Source: Candidatus Margulisiibacteriota bacterium (GTDB lineage: Bacteria; Margulisbacteria; WOR-1; O2-12-FULL-45-9). Taken from it: 16,558 nucleotides of DNA. Below the pieces are notes generated by a model. It ran no database searches, was not told where the DNA came from, and saw nothing but the letters and a program-made list of their open reading frames with translations. The position numbers were made by a program, and so were the translations under genes. Below are positions 295 to 16,380 of the stretch, piece after piece. The stretch lies in assembly GCA_043816785.1 (NCBI GenBank), contig JBDRHP010000076.1:1-16558 (forward strand), read 5' to 3'. Position 1 is the first letter of the stretch. The number at the start of each line of letters is the position of its first letter.

Positions 295-1002
295 ATGAAC
301 CTTTTTCTATTTTTCTTTACAATTGTAGTTTCATTTTTAGCAGTGAGGATTGGGGCCGCGGCCTTTGAATTGACCGGCATGGAAAGGGACCAGTCTCGTT
401 TCCAGTCGCTGTCCTGTTTTTCCGGCACGGGTTTTACGACCTCAGAAGCAGAATTAATCACCAGCCACCCGCAGCGCAGAAAGATTGCCGGCTACCTGAT
501 GATCCTGGGCAACGCCGGCTTGGTCACATTGATCGCAACCTTTGCCAACACAATGAGGCCAGTAGATATAATTGATCAGTTTAAATTTTTTGCCATCCCG
601 CTTCCTATCCCTGCCCACCTCTCCCCTTACATAAATTTGCTGGTCATCGTAGTTGGGATTTTTGCGCTGGTCAAACTCTTTACCCGTTCACACATCATTG
701 ACCGCTTCACCGCGAGGGCAAAAGAGAAAATGATCGAAAAGAAGATCGTCAAGGAAGAAAAAGTTACAGAATTACTGTTTACCCACGAAGGCTACGGCGT
801 TTCCCAATTCGACGTCCATCCGGACAGCCCGCTGGCAGATAAGAGCCTTAAAGAACTAAAGCTTAAAGAATCAGAGGTCCAGGTGTTGCTGATCGAGCGG
901 CCCGAAGGACCGGTGGTCACCCCAAAAGGAGATGCCAAGCTTAAGTCAGGTGACACCCTGATTTGTTTTGGCAAATTGGAGAAGATAAGGCAATTAGCCT
1001 AG
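295..1002 (+). CDS. Membrane protein with a pore-loop-like segment and C-terminal TrkA-C (RCK_C) domain, 235 aa
   Basis: Start moved from 88 to ATG 295 because of the AAGGAGG SD. Family motif LTGMERDQSRFQSLSCFSGTGFTTSEAELITSHPQRRKIAGYLMILGNAG. RCK_C motif DSPLADKSLKEL...VLLIER...PKGDAKLKSGDTLICFG. Confidence 0.85.
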   Translation: MNLFLFFFTIVVSFLAVRIGAAAFELTGMERDQSRFQSLSCFSGTGFTTSEAELITSHPQRRKIAGYLMILGNAGLVTLIATFANTMRPVDIIDQFKFFAIPLPIPAHLSPYINLLVIVVGIFALVKLFTRSHIIDRFTARAKEKMIEKKIVKEEKVTELLFTHEGYGVSQFDVHPDSPLADKSLKELKLKESEVQVLLIERPEGPVVTPKGDAKLKSGDTLICFGKLEKIRQLA

Positions 1003-2063
1003 AACCACTTTTTCTTGCGAAAGTAGTAGACCATCACCAAGCCGATCACAGCCATTACACCTAAAACAGCAAAATATGCCCAGTGCCATTCTAACTCCGG
1101 CATATACTTAAAATTCATGCCGTAAATGCCCGCAACAAAGGTCAAGGGTATAAAAATCGTGGCAATGACGGTCAAGACCTTCATCACTTCGTTCATGCGG
1201 TTGCTGACGCTGGAAAGATAAATGTCTAAAAGACCGGAAACCATTTCCCGGTAGGATTCAATGGATTCAGCCACCCTGATAGTATGGTCATAAACATCCC
1301 TCAAATAAACCGCCGTTGATCCCTGGATAAGCGATGATTCATTTCGCTGCAATCCGCACAGCACTTCGCGCAGGGGCCAGATCGATTTTCTCAGAAAGAC
1401 CATGTCGCTCTTGAGCTGATGAATAAGCTGTAAAGTCTTTGGCTTGGGGTCAACAGCGACTTTTTGCTCAACAACCTCGATCCTTTCCCCGGTCTTTTCC
1501 AGGATGGCAAAATAACCGTCAACAATGGCGTCAAGCAAAGCGTAAGCCAGGTAATCCGCGCCAAATTGCCTGATCCGGCCCTTGGCAGTGCGGAGACGTT
1601 CCCGGATCGGTTCAAAAACATCCCCCGCCCTTTCCTGGAAGGAGATCACCAGATCCTTTCCCAGTACAAGACTGACCTGCTCAGACATGATCAGGTCGGC
1701 TTGATTATTGAGGTAAATCATCTTGAGGACAATATAGAGATAATCCCCGTAGTCTTCCATTTTGGGACGCTGCTCGGTATTAACAATATCCTCTAAAACC
1801 AGAGGATGCAGACCAAATTGTTTGCCCAGTTTTTCAATAACCTCGGTTTGATGGATCCCATCTACGTTTATCCAGCTAATATGGCCGTTATCCTTGTAAG
1901 GAAAACATTCCTCAATATTTTTGACCTCTTTTTCCTCAAAATTATTCTGACCATAAGCGATCACCGTGATCCTGGTCTTATCAGTTTTCTTTTCTCCCAC
2001 ATGAACAAGTGTCCCCGGGGGAAGACCCTTAGCTTTGGAATTTTTCTTTAAGGATCGTATCAC
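999..2063 (-). CDS. corA: Magnesium/cobalt transporter CorA
   Basis: N-terminal GLPPGTLVHVG, WINVDG, LHPLVLEDI, QRPK, and signature MNEVMKVLT...AGIYGMNFKYMPEL followed by a final TM helix. GTG start overlaps the upstream stop (GTGA). Confidence 0.97.
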   Translation of the reverse strand: MIRSLKKNSKAKGLPPGTLVHVGEKKTDKTRITVIAYGQNNFEEKEVKNIEECFPYKDNGHISWINVDGIHQTEVIEKLGKQFGLHPLVLEDIVNTEQRPKMEDYGDYLYIVLKMIYLNNQADLIMSEQVSLVLGKDLVISFQERAGDVFEPIRERLRTAKGRIRQFGADYLAYALLDAIVDGYFAILEKTGERIEVVEQKVAVDPKPKTLQLIHQLKSDMVFLRKSIWPLREVLCGLQRNESSLIQGSTAVYLRDVYDHTIRVAESIESYREMVSGLLDIYLSSVSNRMNEVMKVLTVIATIFIPLTFVAGIYGMNFKYMPELEWHWAYFAVLGVMAVIGLVMVYYFRKKKWF

Positions 2064-2776
2064 GGATGATCACCGTCTCTGGCTTCTGCCACAAAAATGA
2101 GCGCCAGCCTGACCTTTTCGTCCTGGTCCTTGAGCGGAGCCATTTTTAAACAGACCCTTTTTCTGGCGTTGCGGATCGGCAGCTGCAGATCAACCGTACA
2201 GGTATCAATGACCTTGCCGTTCTCAACCAGGTCCTTGAACAAAGGCAAAAATTCCTTGTTGTTCTCCTGCTTTTCAATTGATTCAAAAGTCATTTTTTCC
2301 TGCTCAATGCCAAATAGTTTCTGGACCGCGGTATTCAGCAACAGGACCTGGCGATCAGCATCGACCAGGATAATACCCCGCTCCACATTGGCGGAGATCA
2401 GTTCAACCAGGCGATGGTATAAACCTATCTTCCCCACCCGCAGCTTGTCATAGATATTGAGCTGGCTGACCATTTTGTTGATCAATATCCCCAGGCCGGT
2501 CACTTCATCCCCCAGCCACCTCGCTTCGCTAACCCCGGTATCGTAATCGCCGGCAAGGATGCGCCGGATAAGATTAACCAGCTGCCTCTTGAACATACCC
2601 AGTCTCAAGGTAAGAAAGACCCAGGTGGCCAGACCGACAACAAAAAGGAAAGCAAAGAAAAGGTCCGCCAGAGGCGTGAGTCCGGCCTGGCGTATGAACA
2701 GGAAATAACCCATCGCATAAGTCAGCAGCAGTAGCAGCCAGAGCATTTTGATAATGTTTCTTTTAAATAAACTCAT
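2060..2776 (-). CDS. Membrane-anchored HAMP + PAS domain protein with no output domain
   Basis: Two N-terminal TM helices. HAMP-like RRILAGDYD...DEVTGLGILINKMVSQL. PAS-like ISANVERGIILVDADRQVLLLNTAVQKLFG...MAPLKDQDEKVRLALIFV. No HisKA/HATPase or GGDEF motif. Four-nt overlaps with both neighbours. Confidence 0.8.
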   Translation of the reverse strand: MSLFKRNIIKMLWLLLLLTYAMGYFLFIRQAGLTPLADLFFAFLFVVGLATWVFLTLRLGMFKRQLVNLIRRILAGDYDTGVSEARWLGDEVTGLGILINKMVSQLNIYDKLRVGKIGLYHRLVELISANVERGIILVDADRQVLLLNTAVQKLFGIEQEKMTFESIEKQENNKEFLPLFKDLVENGKVIDTCTVDLQLPIRNARKRVCLKMAPLKDQDEKVRLALIFVAEARDGDHP

Positions 2777-3459
2777 TGTTTTGAGAATTTCTGCAGGTCT
2801 TCGTCCTTGCCCACGATCAGCAGGACATCATCTTCTTCCAGCGGGATATCAGAAGAAGGGACATCTTCAAGATATTCTTCAAAAGTCCGCTCACCGGTAG
2901 CTGTGATCTGCGGTTTTTTCTTCTTGATCGCGACAATGTTGACCTTGTGCTTCTTTCTGGGATGGATCTCCTCAATGCTCTTGCCAATGAACTGCCTGGG
3001 CACTTTTAGCTCCATAAAGCTGTGGCCGGGCATCAGCGAGATGAACTTGGAAATGTTGGGGGCGATCAGGCAGTTGGCCGTGATCCTGCCCATTTCCTCT
3101 TCCAGATTTATGATGTTGTCCACCTCTAAGGTCTTGATGATCTCCTGCTGCAGCGGGCTGATCGCCCGGGCCCAGATCTTTTTCACGCCAATCTTCTTGA
3201 GCAGGATGGTGGTCAAAAGATTGGCTTCAACATCTTCGCCTATGCAGACGACCGCAACATCAACATTATGCACGCCAATGGCCTTGAGCGCTTTTTCATC
3301 AGTTGTATCAGCAGCCACCGCAGTAGTAACGCATTCCTTGATCAACTCAATGCGTTCTTTTTTTTCATCAATGGCAATCACCTGAGCACCACGATCCGTT
3401 AATTCCTTGGCTACAGTAAAACCAAAATTTCCTAAACCGATCACCGCGATCTGTCTCAT
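2773..3459 (-). CDS. ktrA: Ktr/Trk potassium uptake regulatory subunit (RCK_N + RCK_C)
   Basis: IAVIGLGNFG Rossmann motif, VAVVCIG, KKIWARA, and RCK_C FIGKSI...VNIVAIK...EDDVLLIVG. GGGAGGG SD upstream. Confidence 0.93.
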   Translation of the reverse strand: MRQIAVIGLGNFGFTVAKELTDRGAQVIAIDEKKERIELIKECVTTAVAADTTDEKALKAIGVHNVDVAVVCIGEDVEANLLTTILLKKIGVKKIWARAISPLQQEIIKTLEVDNIINLEEEMGRITANCLIAPNISKFISLMPGHSFMELKVPRQFIGKSIEEIHPRKKHKVNIVAIKKKKPQITATGERTFEEYLEDVPSSDIPLEEDDVLLIVGKDEDLQKFSKQ

Positions 3460-3476
3460 AATAATCCCTCCCTAAA

Positions 3477-5183
3477 CTATCCAATCATCACATGTTCTTC
3501 AGCGTAAACCACTTTGGCCGGCTTGCGTTTTCTGGCAAAAGCATAACCAATGGTCAAGGGCCCCAGCCTGCCAATGAACATCAGCAATGTTACCACAAGC
3601 TTGCCGGCCTTTGAAAGTGTCGGCGTCAGGCCGGTGGAAAGACCAACGGTGCCAAAGGCGCTGACCGTTTCAAACAGAACATCACGCATGGGTTTTTGCT
3701 CAATATACAGCAGCAGCATGGCAAACCCCACCACCAGCAGGATGGAAACAACAAACAGGATAATCACTTTCTGCACGACCTCATTAGGTACACTTCTTTT
3801 AAAGACCCGAACGTTCTCCTCCTGCCGCAGGGCGCTGGCCAGTGTGGACCAGAGCACCGCCACGGTTGTTGTTTTAACGCCGCCGCCCGTTGATCCAGGA
3901 GAGGCGCCAATAAACATAAAGACAATCATCATGAACAATGTGGCCGAAGAAAGTTTGGCTATATCAAACGTATTAAAGCCGGCAGTGCGGGTCGTGATCG
4001 ACTGGAACAAAGAAATAAGCAGCTGGTTGTCATAACGCAGGCCAGCGAATCCCCGGCTCTTTTCAAAAGCAAAGATCAAAAGCGTGCCGATCACGATCAG
4101 GAGCAGGGAAACTCGTAAGACCAGTTTTGTCTGAATACGCAGCTTCATCCTGCGGTCCTTGGTTCGAGAAAAGAAATTTCGCAAATTATGGTAAAAATCG
4201 CGTATGACTAAAAAGCCCAAGCCGCCCATAACGACCAGGAACATGATGACCAGGTTAGTGCTCATGTCATTGTTGAATTGGATCAGGCTGTCGCTGAAAG
4301 TCGAGAATCCAGCATTGCAAAAAGCTGAGATCGAGTGAAAGAACGCGTGGTAGAGCGAAACAAAAATATTGCCGAACCTCTTTCCCCAAAGAAGGAACAA
4401 GATCAGGGCGCCCGCCAGTTCAAGGATCAGCGTCATCTTCAAAATGAACAGGACCAGGTTCTTGACATTACTCATCAGGTCCTGATCGAGCACCTCGCGC
4501 ATTTCCAGACTTTCCTTTGGGCCAAAGCTGCGCTTCATCAGCAGGGCCAGTGAAACGGAAAAGGTCATGATCCCCAGGCCGCCTAATTGGACCAGGGCCA
4601 GGATGACCATCTGGCCAAATGGGCTGAAATAAGTTGCCGTATCCTGGACAATTAAGCCGGTTACACAAACAGCTGAAGTCGAAGTAAACAAGGCATCTAT
4701 AAAAGTAGCCTCACTGCCAGTCGCTGTGGCCGCCGGCAACGCCAGCAAAATTGTCCCGACCGCAATGGCAAAAGAAAAGCTGATGAGCATCAGCTGGGCC
4801 GGACGGAAACTCAGCATAGCAATTAATTTGGTTGCCCGCTTTGTTCTTGAAATCAGCATAAAGATCAAAATCGTCTGCCAGAGAATGATGTAAAAAGGCA
4901 GGTTCTCGATAAAAGGAATAAACCTGAGCAGCGGGATAAAAACAATCAGGTCAAGCCAGTTTTTGGCAAGATATACCCTTTTATTTTTACTGGCAAAATA
5001 TTTAATCGCCACATCAAACATAAAAATAAGCAGTATCCCCAGGTTAATCCAGCGAATAATGTGTGAATATGCTTTTAGAAAACCTGTGTTTTGAAAAAAC
5101 AGCAGCAAAAAAGCAAACAAGGCCACCAAGCCGATAAAATAATCTAATTTACTAGGTTTGCCTGATTTTTCTAACAATTCCAT
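3477..5183 (-). CDS. ktrB: Ktr/TrkH-family potassium uptake membrane subunit with an ~120-aa N-terminal membrane extension
   Basis: Four pore loops TSAVCVTGL, SAFCNAGFS, TTRTAGFNT and SAFGTVGLS. Also MFIGASPGSTGGGVKTTT, LMFIGRLGPLT and the KtrB-type C-terminus EHVMIG. Confidence 0.95.
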   Translation of the reverse strand: MELLEKSGKPSKLDYFIGLVALFAFLLLFFQNTGFLKAYSHIIRWINLGILLIFMFDVAIKYFASKNKRVYLAKNWLDLIVFIPLLRFIPFIENLPFYIILWQTILIFMLISRTKRATKLIAMLSFRPAQLMLISFSFAIAVGTILLALPAATATGSEATFIDALFTSTSAVCVTGLIVQDTATYFSPFGQMVILALVQLGGLGIMTFSVSLALLMKRSFGPKESLEMREVLDQDLMSNVKNLVLFILKMTLILELAGALILFLLWGKRFGNIFVSLYHAFFHSISAFCNAGFSTFSDSLIQFNNDMSTNLVIMFLVVMGGLGFLVIRDFYHNLRNFFSRTKDRRMKLRIQTKLVLRVSLLLIVIGTLLIFAFEKSRGFAGLRYDNQLLISLFQSITTRTAGFNTFDIAKLSSATLFMMIVFMFIGASPGSTGGGVKTTTVAVLWSTLASALRQEENVRVFKRSVPNEVVQKVIILFVVSILLVVGFAMLLLYIEQKPMRDVLFETVSAFGTVGLSTGLTPTLSKAGKLVVTLLMFIGRLGPLTIGYAFARKRKPAKVVYAEEHVMIG

Positions 5184-5236: not shown

Positions 5237-5983
5237 TCATTCCCTATGCCAGATGATTCTGGTGCCGATAACGTGGGCATTCTCCCAGTTATCCGCAAGG
5301 AACTGAGTACGCTCTGTTTCGTAAGTATAATAAAGGTCAAGGCTCAAGCCGTTAAGCGGCCGGACAAAGCCGATCGTCGCCCAGTTACGAAAAACCTCGC
5401 CGTATTTCAAACTGTGGAAGAGATCGTCTGAAACATATACCGAGCCCAAGCCATACTTCCAGGCAACTGTGGGCCTGATCCGATAGACCACATGTGTATT
5501 TTCCGGCTTTTCCAGATCAATGTTCCAGAGCTCAAAATCGTTGCTCATGATAATCTCCAGCACGCGAAGCGCCCCCTGCTTGACCCGACCGATAACGCTG
5601 GTATCCTCAGTCTCATTTGCTGTTCGCCCTATCTTGGACAGACCAGGGGAAAAAATAAAAATAATCTTAGGATCAAAATGGAATTCAAAGCGGTTCTCCG
5701 GCTGCCAGCTGCCATTTGTTCTTTGATTGACAAAGCGGTAGTAAAGCCCCAAGTCCATCCAGGAAAATGGATGAAAGAGAAAACCAGTGCGCCAGTGGTA
5801 ATAGTAAAAGCGGCTCAGGCTCTCATCAAACCTGAATTCCGGTGTCAAGGAATAATCCGAGCCCCAGATTGCCTTTTGCTGGTAAGAAAAGGCGCTGAAA
5901 TATTTCAGGTCTTCGGCTAAGAGTGAGCCAGAACAAAAGAACAGGAAAATCAATAGCAGAATCGCTTTTTTGACCATTTTCAT
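5237..5983 (-). CDS. DUF2490-like predicted outer-membrane beta-barrel protein
   Basis: Signal peptide MKMVKKAILLLIFLFFCSGSLLA, aromatic alternating beta strands, EFRFD, W..ENR and HVIG motifs. The start may be ATG 5983 or 5977; the extension to 6130 overlaps the GH65 gene and is rejected. Confidence 0.7.
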   Translation of the reverse strand: MKMVKKAILLLIFLFFCSGSLLAEDLKYFSAFSYQQKAIWGSDYSLTPEFRFDESLSRFYYYHWRTGFLFHPFSWMDLGLYYRFVNQRTNGSWQPENRFEFHFDPKIIFIFSPGLSKIGRTANETEDTSVIGRVKQGALRVLEIIMSNDFELWNIDLEKPENTHVVYRIRPTVAWKYGLGSVYVSDDLFHSLKYGEVFRNWATIGFVRPLNGLSLDLYYTYETERTQFLADNWENAHVIGTRIIWHRE

Positions 5984-6035: not shown

Positions 6036-8360
6036 TTAAAACTTTTTCTGCAAGGCGACCTTGGCGGAGCGTTTGTGCTGCAATTTAACAGTCTTGCCCT
6101 GCACATTGACCTGAACAGACTTGCCATCAAGCAGCCAAAAAGTGATCGTTTTATGGTTGACGGATACTTTGATCAAACGGCCCTGCCAGTAAGTGGTAAA
6201 GCCAAGATTTTGCCATTTTTTTGGCAGCCATGGATCAAAACACAAATCCCCACGCCTGATCCGCATGCCGGCAAAACCGTGGATCGCCGTCATCCAGGCG
6301 CCGCCGGTCGCTGCTCCGTGGATACCGTCAGACGCATTCTTGTTTAGATCATATAGGTCTAGGTAGGACGTCTTGATAAAATAGGCATAGGCCCGGCGGT
6401 GGTCGCCCACATCCAACCCCGTGATAGCATGGATACAGGGAGACAGCGATGATTTATGCATGGTCCTGGCTTCGTAATAATTATAGTTCTTTTGCTTGAG
6501 TTGCAAGCCAAAACGATCTGGAAAAAGATACAACAACAAGACCACGTCGGCCTGTTTGAGCAATTGTGTTTGGTCCAGAGTTGAATCATCAACACCCTTG
6601 GGAAACAACGGCATGCCGCCACTGTCCAAATGCCTGATAACATGATCATCCAGCGTCAAATAGCCTTCGAACTGTTCGATCAACTCGGTTTTCTGGTCAT
6701 AAGGAAAGTAAATGGTCTTGGAGACCTTGCGCATCTTATCAATTTCATCAACCTTGAGCTTGATCTTGGCGCTCAGATCCTTCAAAACCTGGGGTGCCTC
6801 CTCACGCATCTGGTTGTAAACAGTAACCGCATATTCCAGGTGCCACATAACCAAGTAATTGGTAAAAGCGTTGTTATCCACATGCTCGTGGAACTCGTCC
6901 GGGCCAATGACCTTGCGGATCTCATTCCGGTCTCGCCTGGACTCGACCCGTGACAGCCAAAAGCGGGCCGTTTGCAGGATTATCTCAGCCCCATATTTGT
7001 AGAGAAAATCGAGGTCGCCCGTTGCCCGTAAGTACTTATAAATTCCGTAAACCACATCGGAAACAATGTGATGCTCTTCATCACCGGTAAAGATCTTGAC
7101 TGAGGATCCGTCCGACCGTAAACCAAAGTCCGGCGTTGTCTCTTGGCCGGTATCGGCGCTTTCCCAGGCGTATTTTGCACCCTGGTAACCCAGTTTGGCC
7201 GCGTTGGCCAGGGCGCCGTCCAGGGTGTAATAGCGATACATCAGCAGGTTACGCGCTTCCTCAGGGAAATTAAAAATGTAGAAAGGCAGCATAAAGATCT
7301 CGGTGTCCCAGAAAACATGGCCTTTATAACCCTCACCGGTCAAGAACTTGGCCGCGATGCTGACCGTGGGATCATGATGCGGCTTGACCGCCAGCAGATG
7401 ATAAATGTTAAAACGAATGCCTTTTTGGGCCTTGCGGTCGCCCTTGATCTGGATATCGGCTCGCTGCCACAACGCTTCACGCGCCGCAAGATGTTTCCTG
7501 AGATGGAAATCAATGCCTTCATACATCATATCCCGCAGCAGGTCTGTGGCAGCTGATTCCAGCTGACGCTCATAGCCTTCGCGGCTGGTAAAGATCGAGA
7601 CCCATTTGGCAAAATCGCAGGTTTTACCGCGCTTGGCCTCAAAGGTCATTTCCTGGGCAAATTTCTCGCCATACATCCGGTTAACCTTGATGATCGGTAT
7701 GCCCTGGCCAAGATAGACCGTGTCTGCCGCCATGGCGATCCGGGTCTTGTTGTCGCGGGTTTCCATTTCCAGATAGATCCGGTCCTCGTCACGTTTCATG
7801 GCCACCACATTCAGGTGCTTGATCCGTTCTTCCGGGAAATAGCCCTGGTTGGTCACGTCACCGTTCAAGCCGCTAATAACCTTGATCTGGCCGAAAAAGT
7901 TCTCCGGCTTGATCGAAACACACATCAGCGCGCCCCGGACCTGATGGGCAAAGACCAAACGTTTGGTCTCGATCTTAAGTATCCTGCCCTTAGGGCACTT
8001 TAAACGGCTGACCCGGTGAAGAATGCCTTTGCGCATATCCAGCGATCTGCGGTGGCTGAGCACAGTGCAGCTGTCAACTGAAAATTTCTGGCCATCACAC
8101 CAGACGGAGAAATCATTCCAGACCGGAGCCTTGACGATCTGGCGGATATAGCTTTCTGACTTGTCAAAGACGCCGGCAATATACATGCCGCGGTAACTGC
8201 CATGAGGGTTCTCTTCCAGGGCGCCGCGCATGCCTAAATAGCCATTGCCGAGCACGAACAGGCTTTCGTATTTAGCCTGCTGCTGAAGATGGAATTTTTT
8301 TTCCTCGATCAGCCAGTCATCCTGGCTCAGCTCAAAATATTTTGAGATCCTAGCGGTCAA
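6036..8360 (-). CDS. Glycoside hydrolase family 65 phosphorylase (kojibiose/trehalose/glucosylglycerol phosphorylase-like)
   Basis: ESLFVLGNGYLGMRG, LTGEGYKGHVFWDTE, catalytic-acid loop IGPDEFHEHVDNNAFTN, LKQADV and HKSSLS. TTG start overlaps the pgmB stop. Confidence 0.95.
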   Translation of the reverse strand: MTARISKYFELSQDDWLIEEKKFHLQQQAKYESLFVLGNGYLGMRGALEENPHGSYRGMYIAGVFDKSESYIRQIVKAPVWNDFSVWCDGQKFSVDSCTVLSHRRSLDMRKGILHRVSRLKCPKGRILKIETKRLVFAHQVRGALMCVSIKPENFFGQIKVISGLNGDVTNQGYFPEERIKHLNVVAMKRDEDRIYLEMETRDNKTRIAMAADTVYLGQGIPIIKVNRMYGEKFAQEMTFEAKRGKTCDFAKWVSIFTSREGYERQLESAATDLLRDMMYEGIDFHLRKHLAAREALWQRADIQIKGDRKAQKGIRFNIYHLLAVKPHHDPTVSIAAKFLTGEGYKGHVFWDTEIFMLPFYIFNFPEEARNLLMYRYYTLDGALANAAKLGYQGAKYAWESADTGQETTPDFGLRSDGSSVKIFTGDEEHHIVSDVVYGIYKYLRATGDLDFLYKYGAEIILQTARFWLSRVESRRDRNEIRKVIGPDEFHEHVDNNAFTNYLVMWHLEYAVTVYNQMREEAPQVLKDLSAKIKLKVDEIDKMRKVSKTIYFPYDQKTELIEQFEGYLTLDDHVIRHLDSGGMPLFPKGVDDSTLDQTQLLKQADVVLLLYLFPDRFGLQLKQKNYNYYEARTMHKSSLSPCIHAITGLDVGDHRRAYAYFIKTSYLDLYDLNKNASDGIHGAATGGAWMTAIHGFAGMRIRRGDLCFDPWLPKKWQNLGFTTYWQGRLIKVSVNHKTITFWLLDGKSVQVNVQGKTVKLQHKRSAKVALQKKF

Positions 8361-9000
8361 GGTTAAGTATCTCCTCCAGGGCGACCTCGCTCAGGTCGTT
8401 GACGATCCGGTTTGCACGGCTCAAAGCTTCAGCATTGTTATGCCGGTTGATGCCGATGCAATAAAAACCGCCGTTAGCTGCCGCGTCTACGCCGGATTTG
8501 GCATCTTCAAAAACCACTGATTCTTTAGGGTCAGCGCCCAAGCGGGCTGCCGCAGTCAAAAATATTTCCGGGTCAGGCTTGCCTTTTTCAAAATCAGCCC
8601 CAGAAACATTAACATCAAACATATCATATAATTTGATCTTTTTCAAAATTCGCACCGCGTTCTTGCTGGAGGAAGCCGCGGCTAGTTTGAGGCCATGGTT
8701 TTTCAGCTGCTGGATAATCTTGACCGAACTCTCAAAGATTTCGATCGTTTCGCTGTCCAATAACTTCTGGTAATAACCTTGTTTGATCTCCCCTGCCTTT
8801 TTTATTTCCTCTGGAGACAATTCAGTCAGGATCGCTGCCGCGCCCTCAAGCCGGGGCCGGCCGTCAACTTTGCCCAGGTAATCCGCCATAGTAAAATCAT
8901 GACCATACTGATTGAACATCTTTTGCCAGGCATTGAAGTGCAGCGGCACCGTGTTAACAATGACGCCGTCGAGGTCAAAAATAGCCGCTTTGATCGCCAC
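8350..9000 (-). CDS. pgmB: Beta-phosphoglucomutase (HAD family)
   Basis: IFDLDGVIVNT...HFNAW, ASSSKNA, GKPDPEIFL and VFEDAKSGV motifs. Adjacent to a GH65 gene, whose product is beta-glucose-1-phosphate. Confidence 0.9.
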   Translation of the reverse strand: MAIKAAIFDLDGVIVNTVPLHFNAWQKMFNQYGHDFTMADYLGKVDGRPRLEGAAAILTELSPEEIKKAGEIKQGYYQKLLDSETIEIFESSVKIIQQLKNHGLKLAAASSSKNAVRILKKIKLYDMFDVNVSGADFEKGKPDPEIFLTAAARLGADPKESVVFEDAKSGVDAAANGGFYCIGINRHNNAEALSRANRIVNDLSEVALEEILNLDR

Positions 9001-10248
9001 CTAAACCGCCATCTCCTCTTGAGCAATAACGAATTTACGTCTTGGCTGGAATTTTTTCTTGCGTGTCTTGGAATAATCCTTGATCGCTTGTTCAAACACT
9101 TTGTAGATATTTTCCGCGTAGATCCTCTTGGTATACATATGCATGATCTGTTCGCGGCCGGTCTTGCCCAGCTTGGCGCTCAGCTTGTCAGATGACAAAA
9201 GTTTAATGATCTTTTCGGCCAGAGCCTCATGATTTCCCTTAGGTATAACATAACCGTTAATGTCGTTCTGGATGATCTCCGGCATGCCGCCCGAATCGGT
9301 CACAATAATGGGCTTAGCCGCAGCCATAGATTCCAACATGGTTAAGCCAAAAGGTTCTTCTGCGGACGAGGGATAGACCACCACGTCAGCCAGACGATAC
9401 AACTCCGGCATTTCCTTTTCCAGGGAGAACGTGTTGATATAAACGCTGTCCTGCAAGCCAAGATGTTTGATCAAGGTCGCAAAAAAAGCAATATCCTTGT
9501 TCTGCGTCAAGCCCCAGTCAATGATATTGCCGCTGCCGGACATGAGAAGCGCTGCGTCAGGTATTTTGTTCTTGACGATCCGAAATGCCTCGATGGTAAT
9601 GTCACAACCTTTGGAAATGCCCAGACGGGCAGGATGAAACACGACTTTTTTCATCTTTTTTAAAGGCGGGTGGTCTTTAAAGATAAAGGGCTTGCTTGTG
9701 CCCGGAGTGAATTTACGCTCATCAATACCATGGTGGACAACATCAACCTTCTCTTCAGGCACTCCGACTGCCACTAATTCACGTTTAATGTAATGGCTGA
9801 TGGCAATGATCCGGTCCCAGGCAACTTTGCAGGTCAAGTCGAGGTACAACTTATCTTTCCAAGCATTGTGCGCGGTTAGGACCAGGGGAACCTTGTGCTG
9901 CAAGGCCCAGTGCTCCACCACCCTGGTATGGTAGCGGCTAAAGTAATGCATATTATGGCAATGGATAACATCAGGCTTGGTCTTGTTAAGGTACCCGAGC
10001 GTTACATCCCAAACGTTATCGTCGACTTCCTGGAAATTGCTTTTGAACAGCCAGTTAAGGTCATAATACTGGTTGCGCGTGATCCCGACCCCTTTGAAAT
10101 CGTAATGTTCAGGATAACCTTCAGCTGATCCGGTCAGCAGAGAAACCTTGTGGCCCATCTTTACCAGTTCCGGCATCAAGGAAACCAGGTGGGTCTCAAC
10201 TCCGCCAATGATCGGCGGAAAACCCCAGTGCAACATAGCAATTTTCAT
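9001..10248 (-). CDS. GT4 family (GT-B fold, retaining) glycosyltransferase
   Basis: N-terminal PPIIGGVETH, PDVIHCHN, PARLGISKG, and EX7E motif EEPFGLTMLESMA...GGMPEII. GAGGTG SD. The stop directly abuts the pgmB GTG. Confidence 0.92.
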   Translation of the reverse strand: MKIAMLHWGFPPIIGGVETHLVSLMPELVKMGHKVSLLTGSAEGYPEHYDFKGVGITRNQYYDLNWLFKSNFQEVDDNVWDVTLGYLNKTKPDVIHCHNMHYFSRYHTRVVEHWALQHKVPLVLTAHNAWKDKLYLDLTCKVAWDRIIAISHYIKRELVAVGVPEEKVDVVHHGIDERKFTPGTSKPFIFKDHPPLKKMKKVVFHPARLGISKGCDITIEAFRIVKNKIPDAALLMSGSGNIIDWGLTQNKDIAFFATLIKHLGLQDSVYINTFSLEKEMPELYRLADVVVYPSSAEEPFGLTMLESMAAAKPIIVTDSGGMPEIIQNDINGYVIPKGNHEALAEKIIKLLSSDKLSAKLGKTGREQIMHMYTKRIYAENIYKVFEQAIKDYSKTRKKKFQPRRKFVIAQEEMAV

Positions 10249-14264: not shown

Positions 14265-14639
14265 TCAGTGCAATTCAATAAATCTCTTTATTTTTTTTAA
14301 TGTCTGGCGGCTGATCACATGCTCAATCCTGCAGGCATCTTTTTCTGCGATCCCACTTTCAATTTTTAAAATGCCATGCAAAAATTTATATAAAACCTGA
14401 TGGCGCCCCATAACTTTTTGGGCAATGCCTTTTCCTTTCTGAGTTAATGTAACAGAGTTGTAACGGTCATAATTAACCAAACTAGATCTTTTTAGTTTCC
14501 TTAAAGCCTCAGTAACACTGGGCATTTTTATGCTTATTGTTTTGGCGATATCTTTCACATGCGCATGACCATGTTCCCTCTGCAGAACAAAAACAGTCTC
14601 TAAGTAGTTTTCCATATTTGCCGTTAGTTTCTTTTTCAT
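14265..14639 (-). CDS. DtxR/MntR family metal-dependent transcriptional regulator (short form, no FeoA/SH3 domain)
   Basis: MENYLETV, HTH VKDIAKTISIKMPSVTEALRKL, LTQKG...RH and DACRIEHVIS. Start placed at ATG 14639. Confidence 0.92.
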   Translation of the reverse strand: MKKKLTANMENYLETVFVLQREHGHAHVKDIAKTISIKMPSVTEALRKLKRSSLVNYDRYNSVTLTQKGKGIAQKVMGRHQVLYKFLHGILKIESGIAEKDACRIEHVISRQTLKKIKRFIELH

Positions 14640-14646
14640 ATTCAAA

Positions 14647-16380
14647 TCAAAGTATGAAGTTGAGCAATGTCCCAACAAAAATAGCGGTAAAGACCATAAT
14701 AACCGCAGCTTTCAGCATATCCTTCCAGCCCAGCTCTTTAAGTAAAACCGCGAAAGTAGCAATACAAGGGAAAAACATGGCCAAAACCACACAAGCAACA
14801 ATAAGCTGGTTAAAGGACATCTTAAGCGGCACTAACATTCCAACAGCGACATCTGTCCTTAAAAATCCGATCACGATCGCGGTAACCGCCTCTTTGGGCA
14901 ATCCCAATAATCCTGTTACTACCGGCGCCGCCAAATTAGCAATAAAATTAAAAATCCCCAAAATATACAGGATATTTACAATAAACACGCCCAATATAAC
15001 TATCGGCAATGCTTCACGCAAAAACCCCTTAACCCGCCACCAAAGTTTTATGATCAAGATCCTCAGAGGCGGAAATCGGTAAGGTGGGATTTCCAGCAGC
15101 AATTCAGGGCTGAAGCCAGGCAGGGATCGGTTTAGAACAAAACCCAGGATCAGCCAGGATAAAAATAAAGTTCCATATACTATAGCTACTGGTCCGCCGC
15201 CATAATCCCCTAATACTCCGATGATCATGGCCTGAAGGGCCGCGCAAGGAACACCGATAGAGATCAAGGTTGAAGCAATAAACCTTTCCCTTTTACTCTC
15301 CAGAATACGTGTGGCTAAAATCCCCGGAACGTTGCAGCCAAAGGCCAATAAAGTAGGCACAATGGCAAACCCGTGAAGGCCAATACGGTGCAAAAGATTA
15401 TCCATAAGCACCGCTAACCTGGGTAAATAACCAGAATCCTCAAGTATTCCCAAAACAAAATAGAAAGACAATACATAAGGGAGAACAGCCGCGATAGGCA
15501 CATATAGTCCTGTAGTTAAAACCCCAAATGACTGCATATAATCTATGCTTCCCCCGATCAACTTTCCCACCAAAACATCGTGCCAAAAACCCGAAGATCC
15601 CAAAAGAACACTCAATTTCATGATTAAAGGAGTATAAAAATTATTAAATAACGGCTCAAAAACATAGCCGATCAATCCTTCACCAATAAAACGGATAACC
15701 TTGAAGGATAGATAGGCGATCAGGATCGCGATCGGCAATCCGGTTATATGATGAATAGTTAAATCCTGCAGCCTTTCCCAAATAGTATGATGGCGATGTT
15801 CTATCCGCTGGACCTCTTTAACAACTTTACCAATATCCTCCCATCGCTCTTCCAAAGTATGCTTACGGACTGCTGGAGTGCGTGCCTTATAAATTTCCGC
15901 GATCAGCCTGGCAAAACCTTGACCAGTCACCGCTACTGTGGGAAAGACCGGAACTCCCAACCATTTTGATAATTTTTCTATATTTATATGAATTCCCTTA
16001 TGCTTGGTATCATCCCACATGTTTAGGGCAACAATAACCGGAATGTCCTGTTCCATAAGCTCCAGCGTAAGGTAGAGATTCCTTTCGAGGTTAGTAGCAT
16101 CTATTACATTAATAATAACGTCCCCTTCGTTTACCGCTTTTTTAGCCGCCTCTTTGAGCATTTCACAGGCAATTTCTTCAGCCTTACAAGTAGGTTCTAA
16201 TGTATAAGTGCCAGGCACATCGATAACTTCGCATTTCTCTTCCCCAACCAGCATATGCCCTTTGGTAAACTCGACCGTAGTTCCAGGATAATTTGAAGTG
16301 ATCACATGCACCCCGGTCAACCTTGAAAAGAAGGCGCTTTTGCCAACATTCGGATTTCCCATTAACAGGATTTTTCTCAT
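14647..16380 (-). CDS. feoB: Ferrous iron transporter B (short 577-aa form)
   Basis: G1 GNPNVGKS, NYPGTTVE, G3 DVPG, G4 NMWD, LEDSGYLPR, FGCNVP gate, LEIPPYR and PCIAT. Confidence 0.96.
   Translation of the reverse strand: MRKILLMGNPNVGKSAFFSRLTGVHVITSNYPGTTVEFTKGHMLVGEEKCEVIDVPGTYTLEPTCKAEEIACEMLKEAAKKAVNEGDVIINVIDATNLERNLYLTLELMEQDIPVIVALNMWDDTKHKGIHINIEKLSKWLGVPVFPTVAVTGQGFARLIAEIYKARTPAVRKHTLEERWEDIGKVVKEVQRIEHRHHTIWERLQDLTIHHITGLPIAILIAYLSFKVIRFIGEGLIGYVFEPLFNNFYTPLIMKLSVLLGSSGFWHDVLVGKLIGGSIDYMQSFGVLTTGLYVPIAAVLPYVLSFYFVLGILEDSGYLPRLAVLMDNLLHRIGLHGFAIVPTLLAFGCNVPGILATRILESKRERFIASTLISIGVPCAALQAMIIGVLGDYGGGPVAIVYGTLFLSWLILGFVLNRSLPGFSPELLLEIPPYRFPPLRILIIKLWWRVKGFLREALPIVILGVFIVNILYILGIFNFIANLAAPVVTGLLGLPKEAVTAIVIGFLRTDVAVGMLVPLKMSFNQLIVACVVLAMFFPCIATFAVLLKELGWKDMLKAAVIMVFTAIFVGTLLNFIL

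Follow-up and report, generated by a model that had tools for sequence, protein, structure and literature searches.

In textbook accounts the bacterial K+ channel KtrAB consists of two subunits and is controlled by ligands in the cytoplasm. Here we describe a locus in which the two channel genes are followed by a third, found on contig JBDRHP010000076.1 of a Candidatus Margulisiibacteriota bacterium (assembly GCA_043816785.1), whose 16,558 analysed nucleotides are called the window below. The products of ktrB and ktrA are, by their sequences, members of the Ktr family, and the gene behind ktrA, here called X, encodes a membrane protein with the architecture of a histidine kinase's input half but without being such a kinase. 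The arrangement ktrB-ktrA-X is a real, conserved and apparently undescribed three-gene variant of KtrAB: neither X nor the sensor-domain fusion in KtrB reported below turned up in searches of the open literature. The genes and features concerned are as follows.

3477-5183, minus strand: ktrB, K+ channel subunit of the TrkH family, 568 aa (PF02386, E = 1.5e-70)
4812-5183, minus strand: voltage-sensor-like domain of four helices (S1-S4) at the N-terminus of KtrB, roughly residues 1-124 (Ion_trans and profile matches)
2773-3459, minus strand: ktrA of the X-linked type, 228 aa (TrkA_N and TrkA_C)
2060-2776, minus strand: X, 238 aa, two transmembrane (TM) helices, a HAMP-like unit and a PAS domain, no output domain
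Within X: TM helices at about residues 8-28 and 35-57 with a very short loop between them; HAMP-like unit at 58-106; signalling-helix-like coiled coil to 130; PAS domain at 129-231
999-2063, minus strand: corA, Mg2+/Co2+ transporter, 354 aa (TIGR00383, above cut-off)

The open reading frames (ORFs) and family scans agree with the gene order and coordinates given in a preliminary description of this sequence, and also with its statement that no response regulator lies in the window, since receiver and kinase families were unmatched in all 15 window ORFs scanned. The same description had read an ATGA overlap at 2773-2776 and a GTGA overlap at 2060-2063 as signs of translational coupling. Both overlaps are present (TCAT and TCAC on the plus strand), but they carry little evidential weight because a four-base overlap is possible in 174 of the 859 close pairs of ORFs on the same strand of this genome.

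The kinase-less protein behind ktrA

X has one PAS domain (PF00989, residues 129-228, E = 4.9e-6), and the protein ends only 10 residues further on. A structural model built from 95 sequences, with a mean predicted local distance difference test score (pLDDT) of 93.9, has helices at 8-28 and 35-74, a linker, a helix at 91-130 and then a PAS fold, and its best structural match is a model of WalK (E = 1.1e-8). At the sequence level X also matches, weakly, NblS, PnpS and WalK over their HAMP-PAS region, and in profile comparisons its TM-HAMP-helix-PAS region is homologous to that of WalK, PhoR/PnpS, NblS and the kinases of K+ transport loci described below (hhalign, 97-99%). The proposal that X is the input half of a WalK/PhoR-type kinase ending cleanly after PAS stands as to the PAS domain and the WalK-like fold; its HAMP assignment finds no Pfam match in X itself, and only 5 of the 95 family members have one (PF00989, by comparison, is found in 36 of 95). 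That the region after the second TM helix is a divergent HAMP is nevertheless supported by the predicted helix-linker-helix, by a D90-E91/N100 motif, and by the matches to NblS, PnpS and WalK together with the profile homology. X has no extracytoplasmic sensor domain. Conservation is concentrated in the cytoplasmic stalk and the PAS domain, the TM helices being poorly conserved, and the near-invariant residues (R58, F62, D90, E91, L106, Y109, D110, L112, N148, N173 and P214) are all cytoplasmic.

Homologues were sought with phmmer against 1.84 billion representative sequences, and 104 clusters match X at E <= 1e-10. Among the 150 matches listed, the best 115 are all 343 aa or shorter, most of them 220-260 aa and aligned end to end; the 343-aa relative is X with a C-terminal tail that has no Pfam match. 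The best X scores 260 bits, whereas full kinases first appear at rank 116, where the score has fallen to 50 bits. None of the 95 aligned family members matches HisKA or HATPase_c, and a search for longer X-like proteins returned only three weak kinases, which is weak evidence. The motif D-[IVLM]-[TS] that links PAS to the following helix occurs after the PAS domain in 59 of 63 kinases and in 2 of 71 X proteins, a loss that fits the PAS domain of X having long been terminal. X thus differs from the HAMP-PAS kinases in lacking HisKA and HATPase, an extracytoplasmic domain and the post-PAS D-I-T link.

Named close homologues come from Margulisbacteria/Saganbacteria, and the Atlas lists three unnamed X clusters of 63-111 members, in which Cloacimonadota, Margulisbacteria and Kiritimatiellota are commonest; a related-locus search with query P0001 gave no match. 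Other classes of the window's own phylum carry a divergent X subfamily at 12-20% identity, in which the reading frame is intact and the length kept. X is a conserved kinase-less protein and not a local truncation.

A set of kinase-less proteins (P0130, P0149 and P0113; 432 and 482 aa) combines a large outside domain with HAMP-PAS and the helix motif of X; it forms its own branch, and one cluster member is named Acidobacteria. P0092, with 172 aa on a single short contig, joins a piece of KtrB to the PAS region of X and is likely an assembly artefact or a deletion.

To follow X across genomes, a degenerate pattern for its conserved helix was used, which favours the core subfamily and yielded 48 genome and 69 metagenome loci. 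X is encoded in 32 of the former and 31 of the latter, the remaining genome loci being 14 kinases and 2 chance matches. The titles of records with pattern loci name Omnitrophota, Kiritimatiellia, Krumholzibacteriota, Fibrobacteraceae, Nitrospiraceae, Endomicrobiales, Planctomycetota, Hydrogenedentota and a Woesearchaeota archaeon, and the linkage of X to ktrA spans at least nine phylum-level lineages, with numerous uncultured groups among the carriers. Altogether 98 distinct X ORFs were scored, near relatives among them not being independent, and 92 have at least 150 bases upstream; ktrA lies within 120 bases upstream in 90 of these 92, one has an intervening gene and one is without ktrA. The preliminary description had allowed that close homologues might be full-length kinases, or that linkage to ktr genes might not be conserved. 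What we find is the opposite on both counts, with relatives that are consistently kinase-less (the top 115) and consistently next to ktrA.

The linkage holds in the other direction as well. Among 146 genomes of the same phylum there is a gap in the KtrA scores: 33 reach at least 158 bits, and none of the others exceeds 118. X is the next gene in 32 of the 33 best KtrAs, the remaining one lying at a contig edge, and it follows none of the 17 canonical-type controls that have downstream DNA (out of 19 lower-scoring controls). In three other phyla X occurs at 14 of the 81 best ktrA loci, two of them weak. In four genomes of the Omnitrophota phylum (G315, G281, G448 and G434) unrelated genes precede ktrA-X and TrkH-family genes lie on other contigs, and in a fifth one gene stands between ktrB and ktrA-X. 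The likely partner of X is therefore KtrA and not KtrB, because ktrA-X pairs occur without ktrB and because conservation lies in the cytoplasmic stalk, not in the TM helices.

The Woesearchaeota record (L101, CP070803.1) carries a whole ktrB-ktrA-X cassette; its X falls inside a bacterial part of the X tree, so the record may reflect a transfer or a binning error.

The channel subunits

The KtrB core and KtrA align over their full length with the KtrAB of B. subtilis and V. alginolyticus, and the filter glycines, the nucleotide motif and the equivalent of E125 are kept; the differences are a third conserved membrane gene, a four-helix domain before KtrB, and the substitutions in KtrA described below. 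The KtrB core contains four M1-P-M2 repeats with one filter glycine each, at pore-loop positions 176, 292, 402 and 514, and a gating arginine at 539. The role of the filter and gating residues is set out in part in PMC6888753 and PMC12059179.

The match to B. subtilis KtrB starts only at residue 114-116 (E = 4e-86), so that KtrB has about 125 extra N-terminal residues, a feature overlooked in the preliminary description. Pfam Ion_trans is found in this N-terminal domain in 20 of 29 aligned members, and its profile matches NaChBac (E = 1.3e-5) and a NaChBac chimera (1.1e-6), then Kv and KvAP. With the sensors of these channels it shares S1-S4 homology, the S2 F..D motif (Phe54 and Asp57) and the acidic residues of the S3 WxD motif. 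It differs from them in being fused to a Trk/Ktr-type pore and in its S4, which lacks the series of arginines at every third position: Arg113 is the sole invariant arginine, R102 occurs in 15 of 29, and positions 104, 107 and 110 are hydrophobic. By homology the N-terminus of KtrB is an S1-S4 domain, charge-poor and voltage-sensor-like. A single-sequence fold of KtrB reached a pLDDT of 46.7 and was not used.

The domain is frequent beside X, though not constant. With four loci at contig ends set aside, it is present in 43 of 50 loci that have a whole ktrB beside ktrA together with X, and in 1 of 49 that lack X. One of the seven X loci without the domain has a long N-terminus; the single X-less case is weak, and a second such case is split.

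KtrA is likewise of a distinct type. It has a single RCK and keeps the nucleotide motif GxGxxG and the cation-site Glu120 (in 84 of 88), but has Arg98, Gln104 and Leu119 in place of Lys, His and Pro, and a 13-residue insertion in RCK_C. These three positions align to K103, H109 and P124 of B. subtilis KtrA, where K103 contacts ADP (PMC12059179) and the PE motif is conserved, E125 being essential and R16 dispensable (PMC6957272). Among 178 distinct KtrAs with 700 bases downstream, the signature R98, Q104 and non-P119 is found in 85 of 88 with X and in 0 of 90 without, a tally to be read with the fact that the signature was derived from the same sequences. The canonical P119 occurs in 0 of 88 X-linked KtrAs, and R11, the equivalent of R16, in 6 of 88; these losses mark a subtype, the features concerned not being needed for KtrAB membership.

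Two further readings of KtrA were tried and rejected. Loss of the R16 equivalent as a loss of ATP activation fails because the loss is tolerated in B. subtilis (PMC6957272) and 46 of 90 X-less KtrAs also lack the residue. The RCK_C insertion as a docking site specific to X looked perfect in an initial set (71 of 71 against 0 of 20), but after three more phyla were added 25 of 90 X-less KtrAs carried it. Two loci (L314 and L315) have a canonical-type ktrA with the insertion and without ktrB or X, before an aroB-like gene (labelled by eye).

Relation to kinases and possible role of X

In Desulfobacterota-type genomes, HAMP-PAS kinases of 610-630 aa are the full kinases with the highest scores against the X profile. 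Among 24 kinase loci fetched, 10 hold a K+-locus class, of which 9 are beside ktr, trk, kdp or kup genes and two stand in the order ktrB-ktrA-kinase; the remaining 14 are mostly PhoR-like by neighbourhood, the PhoR-type and some K+-class labels having been assigned by eye. The core X subfamily scores 123 bits against the PhoR type and 110 against the K+ class, the divergent subfamily 66 and 83 respectively, and the score between the two X subfamilies (74) is below the best of each to kinases. In trees both subfamilies sit on their own branches apart from all kinases, and a single origin of the two is not rejected (p = 0.58 in the approximately unbiased test, 19 of 59 rows left out). Scores and gene order are suggestive of descent from the K+-locus class, but neither the profile-profile comparison nor the trees group X with that class or with the PhoR type.

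The recurrence of HAMP-PAS kinases beside kdp, kup, ktr and trk in Desulfobacterota-type genomes (L340, L341, L343, L334 and L336) makes this class a candidate K+-responsive two-component system. A separate group (L070, L075, L081, L084, L087, L088 and L109) pairs a 4HB_MCP-HAMP kinase bearing the helix motif of X with a sigma-54 regulator, often near ktrAB or an APC permease of about 596 aa. The APC permease near the Desulfobacterota kinases was considered as KimA and rejected, there being no match in the PDB.

As to what X does, we consider it probable, from these genomic comparisons, that X is an accessory third subunit, bound to the ring of KtrA and shifting the balance of gating. The preliminary description had proposed a third subunit passing a signal to KtrAB and/or CorA; the near-perfect two-way linkage fits the KtrAB part, now narrowed to KtrA in particular, and the CorA part is not supported. 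X has no catalytic output and no similar kinase was found in the 86.75% complete genome, which leaves protein contact as the only plausible output. By analogy with HAMP and PAS kinases generally, X would form a dimer whose HAMP-helix-PAS stalk docks on the ring and biases its open/closed switch; the KtrA signature, falling at the positions equivalent to K103, H109 and P124, suggests that X acts at the nucleotide hinge. The input is guessed to be a property of the membrane (stretch, thickness or potential) felt through the short helical hairpin, because X lacks a sensor domain on the outside, and the charge-poor domain of KtrB might read the same signal with it, which is again a guess. More tentatively, the whole could be a sensor-kinase input module freed from its kinase, possibly from the kinases of K+ operons, wired to the KtrA octamer and acting together with the KtrB sensor domain.

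Several points weigh against docking on KtrA. The case for it is wholly one of guilt by association. Of 31 supported splits in the KtrA tree 25 recur in the X tree, with one conflict, but genes that are linked would agree in this way in any case. The covariation analysis of KtrA with X (mutual information with average product correction, 71 pairs, effective number of sequences 46) gave a top z of 6.8, against 5.9-6.3 in 10 shuffles, with subfamily marker columns dominating; at that effective number the within-protein control itself yields few credible contacts. An X relative of 180 aa with one TM helix has no ktrA adjacent (G031, L065:3512-4054), and its genome, 91% complete in about 400 contigs, yielded no X-type KtrA. 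The KtrA signature could be a mark of descent only, the insertion and the tolerated loss of the R16 equivalent add nothing specific to X, and with its nucleotide motif and Glu120 kept an X-type KtrA may gate normally without X.

The strongest competitor, which we think unlikely, makes X a structural or assembly subunit: it would anchor the KtrA ring at the membrane, or aid assembly of that ring and the enlarged KtrB, its sensor domains serving as scaffold. The same linkage data would follow, and the missing outside sensor domain, the poorly conserved TM helices and the want of a recognisable cofactor motif among the conserved PAS residues suit a scaffold; but the HAMP D-E/N and YDxLR helix motifs are kept over about 100 clusters, beyond the needs of a spacer, and canonical KtrAB assembles from two subunits (PMC11078986, PMC12059179). 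Rather less probable is a signal in the reverse direction, in which X reads the state of KtrA and pairs with a distant histidine kinase as co-sensor or decoy. Transporter-coupled kinases are described, PhoR-PhoU-Pst and BceS-BceAB, and the K+-class kinases of ktr, trk, kdp and kup loci, including the two in ktrB-ktrA-kinase order, would suit such a scheme. Against it, no similar HAMP-PAS kinase was found in the window's genome, which is 86.75% complete (best other match 13-16 bits), genes for kinases or regulators do not recur beside X in the loci compared, and X has lost the post-PAS link motif.

That X is what remains of an old kinase, or a sensor of unrelated kind, merely co-transcribed with ktrBA and making no direct contact with the channel, seems improbable indeed. 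The orphan X of G031 and the low score between the X subfamilies speak for it; yet the frame and length are intact at 12-20% identity in the same position, and X moves with ktrA when ktrB is elsewhere. Least credible of all is the link between K+ and Mg2+ uptake through CorA that the preliminary description had offered. KtrA activation does require Mg2+ (PMC6957272), and corA follows X in the window, in a genome of the same family (G114) and in one Endomicrobiales record. These are, however, the only 3 of 87 X loci with at least 400 bases downstream to have it, and the closest orthologue loci (G130 and G107) do not; corA is a local neighbour outside the conserved cassette.

Extra gene products needed by or linked to a channel of this kind have parallels in Synechocystis KtrABE and E. 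coli Trk with SapD (TrkE). KtrE is a glycosyltransferase-like protein, not a HAMP-PAS sensor, and X has no such Pfam match. SapD (PMC9898762) is an ABC protein, unlike X, which again lacks such a match. The nearest working analogy for X is the docking of PhoU on the PAS domain of PhoR (PMC13577022, PMC4423584), where the PAS domain of a kinase likewise serves to bind a partner linked to a transporter; in PhoR-PhoU-PstSCAB the output is transcription through the kinase, whereas for X the contact itself would be the output. If an accessory subunit on the KtrA ring is the right reading, this widespread three-gene form, with its membrane sensor and voltage-sensor-like domain, would be a case of membrane signals acting on the gate of an RCK ring with no transcriptional step, and HAMP domains would gain a further kind of output. 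On the more tentative reading given above, X would also be the first HAMP protein to act on an RCK-gated channel in trans. The cassette is directly testable, the genes being short and the canonical structures solved, and complementation of E. coli TK2420 is an established assay for Ktr function (PMC6957272).

Neighbouring genes

Upstream of the cassette in the window, a gene for a DUF2490 protein (5237-5983, minus strand) lies directly before ktrB and is not seen there in the closest orthologue loci. It is preceded by genes for a GT4 glycosyltransferase, a HAD phosphatase/mutase and a GH65 phosphorylase (6036-10248, minus strand), a trio that in G114 leads straight into ktrB; it could be a compatible-solute pathway in an osmotic-stress operon with the ktr genes. 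Farther off are feoB and then a gene for a DtxR-type repressor (14265-16380, minus strand). Rfam gave no match within the window, promoter and terminator counts there were at the level of shuffled sequences, a plasmid search gave no match, and no diadenylate cyclase was found in the 86.75% complete genome.

On the other side and convergent with corA, positions 295-1002 on the plus strand encode a small membrane protein in which a stretch resembling a pore loop is combined with a TrkA_C domain. Relatives scoring above 100 bits occur in 9 of 99 X loci, several directly behind X, and the product may be a second K+ channel that has a loose association with the cassette.

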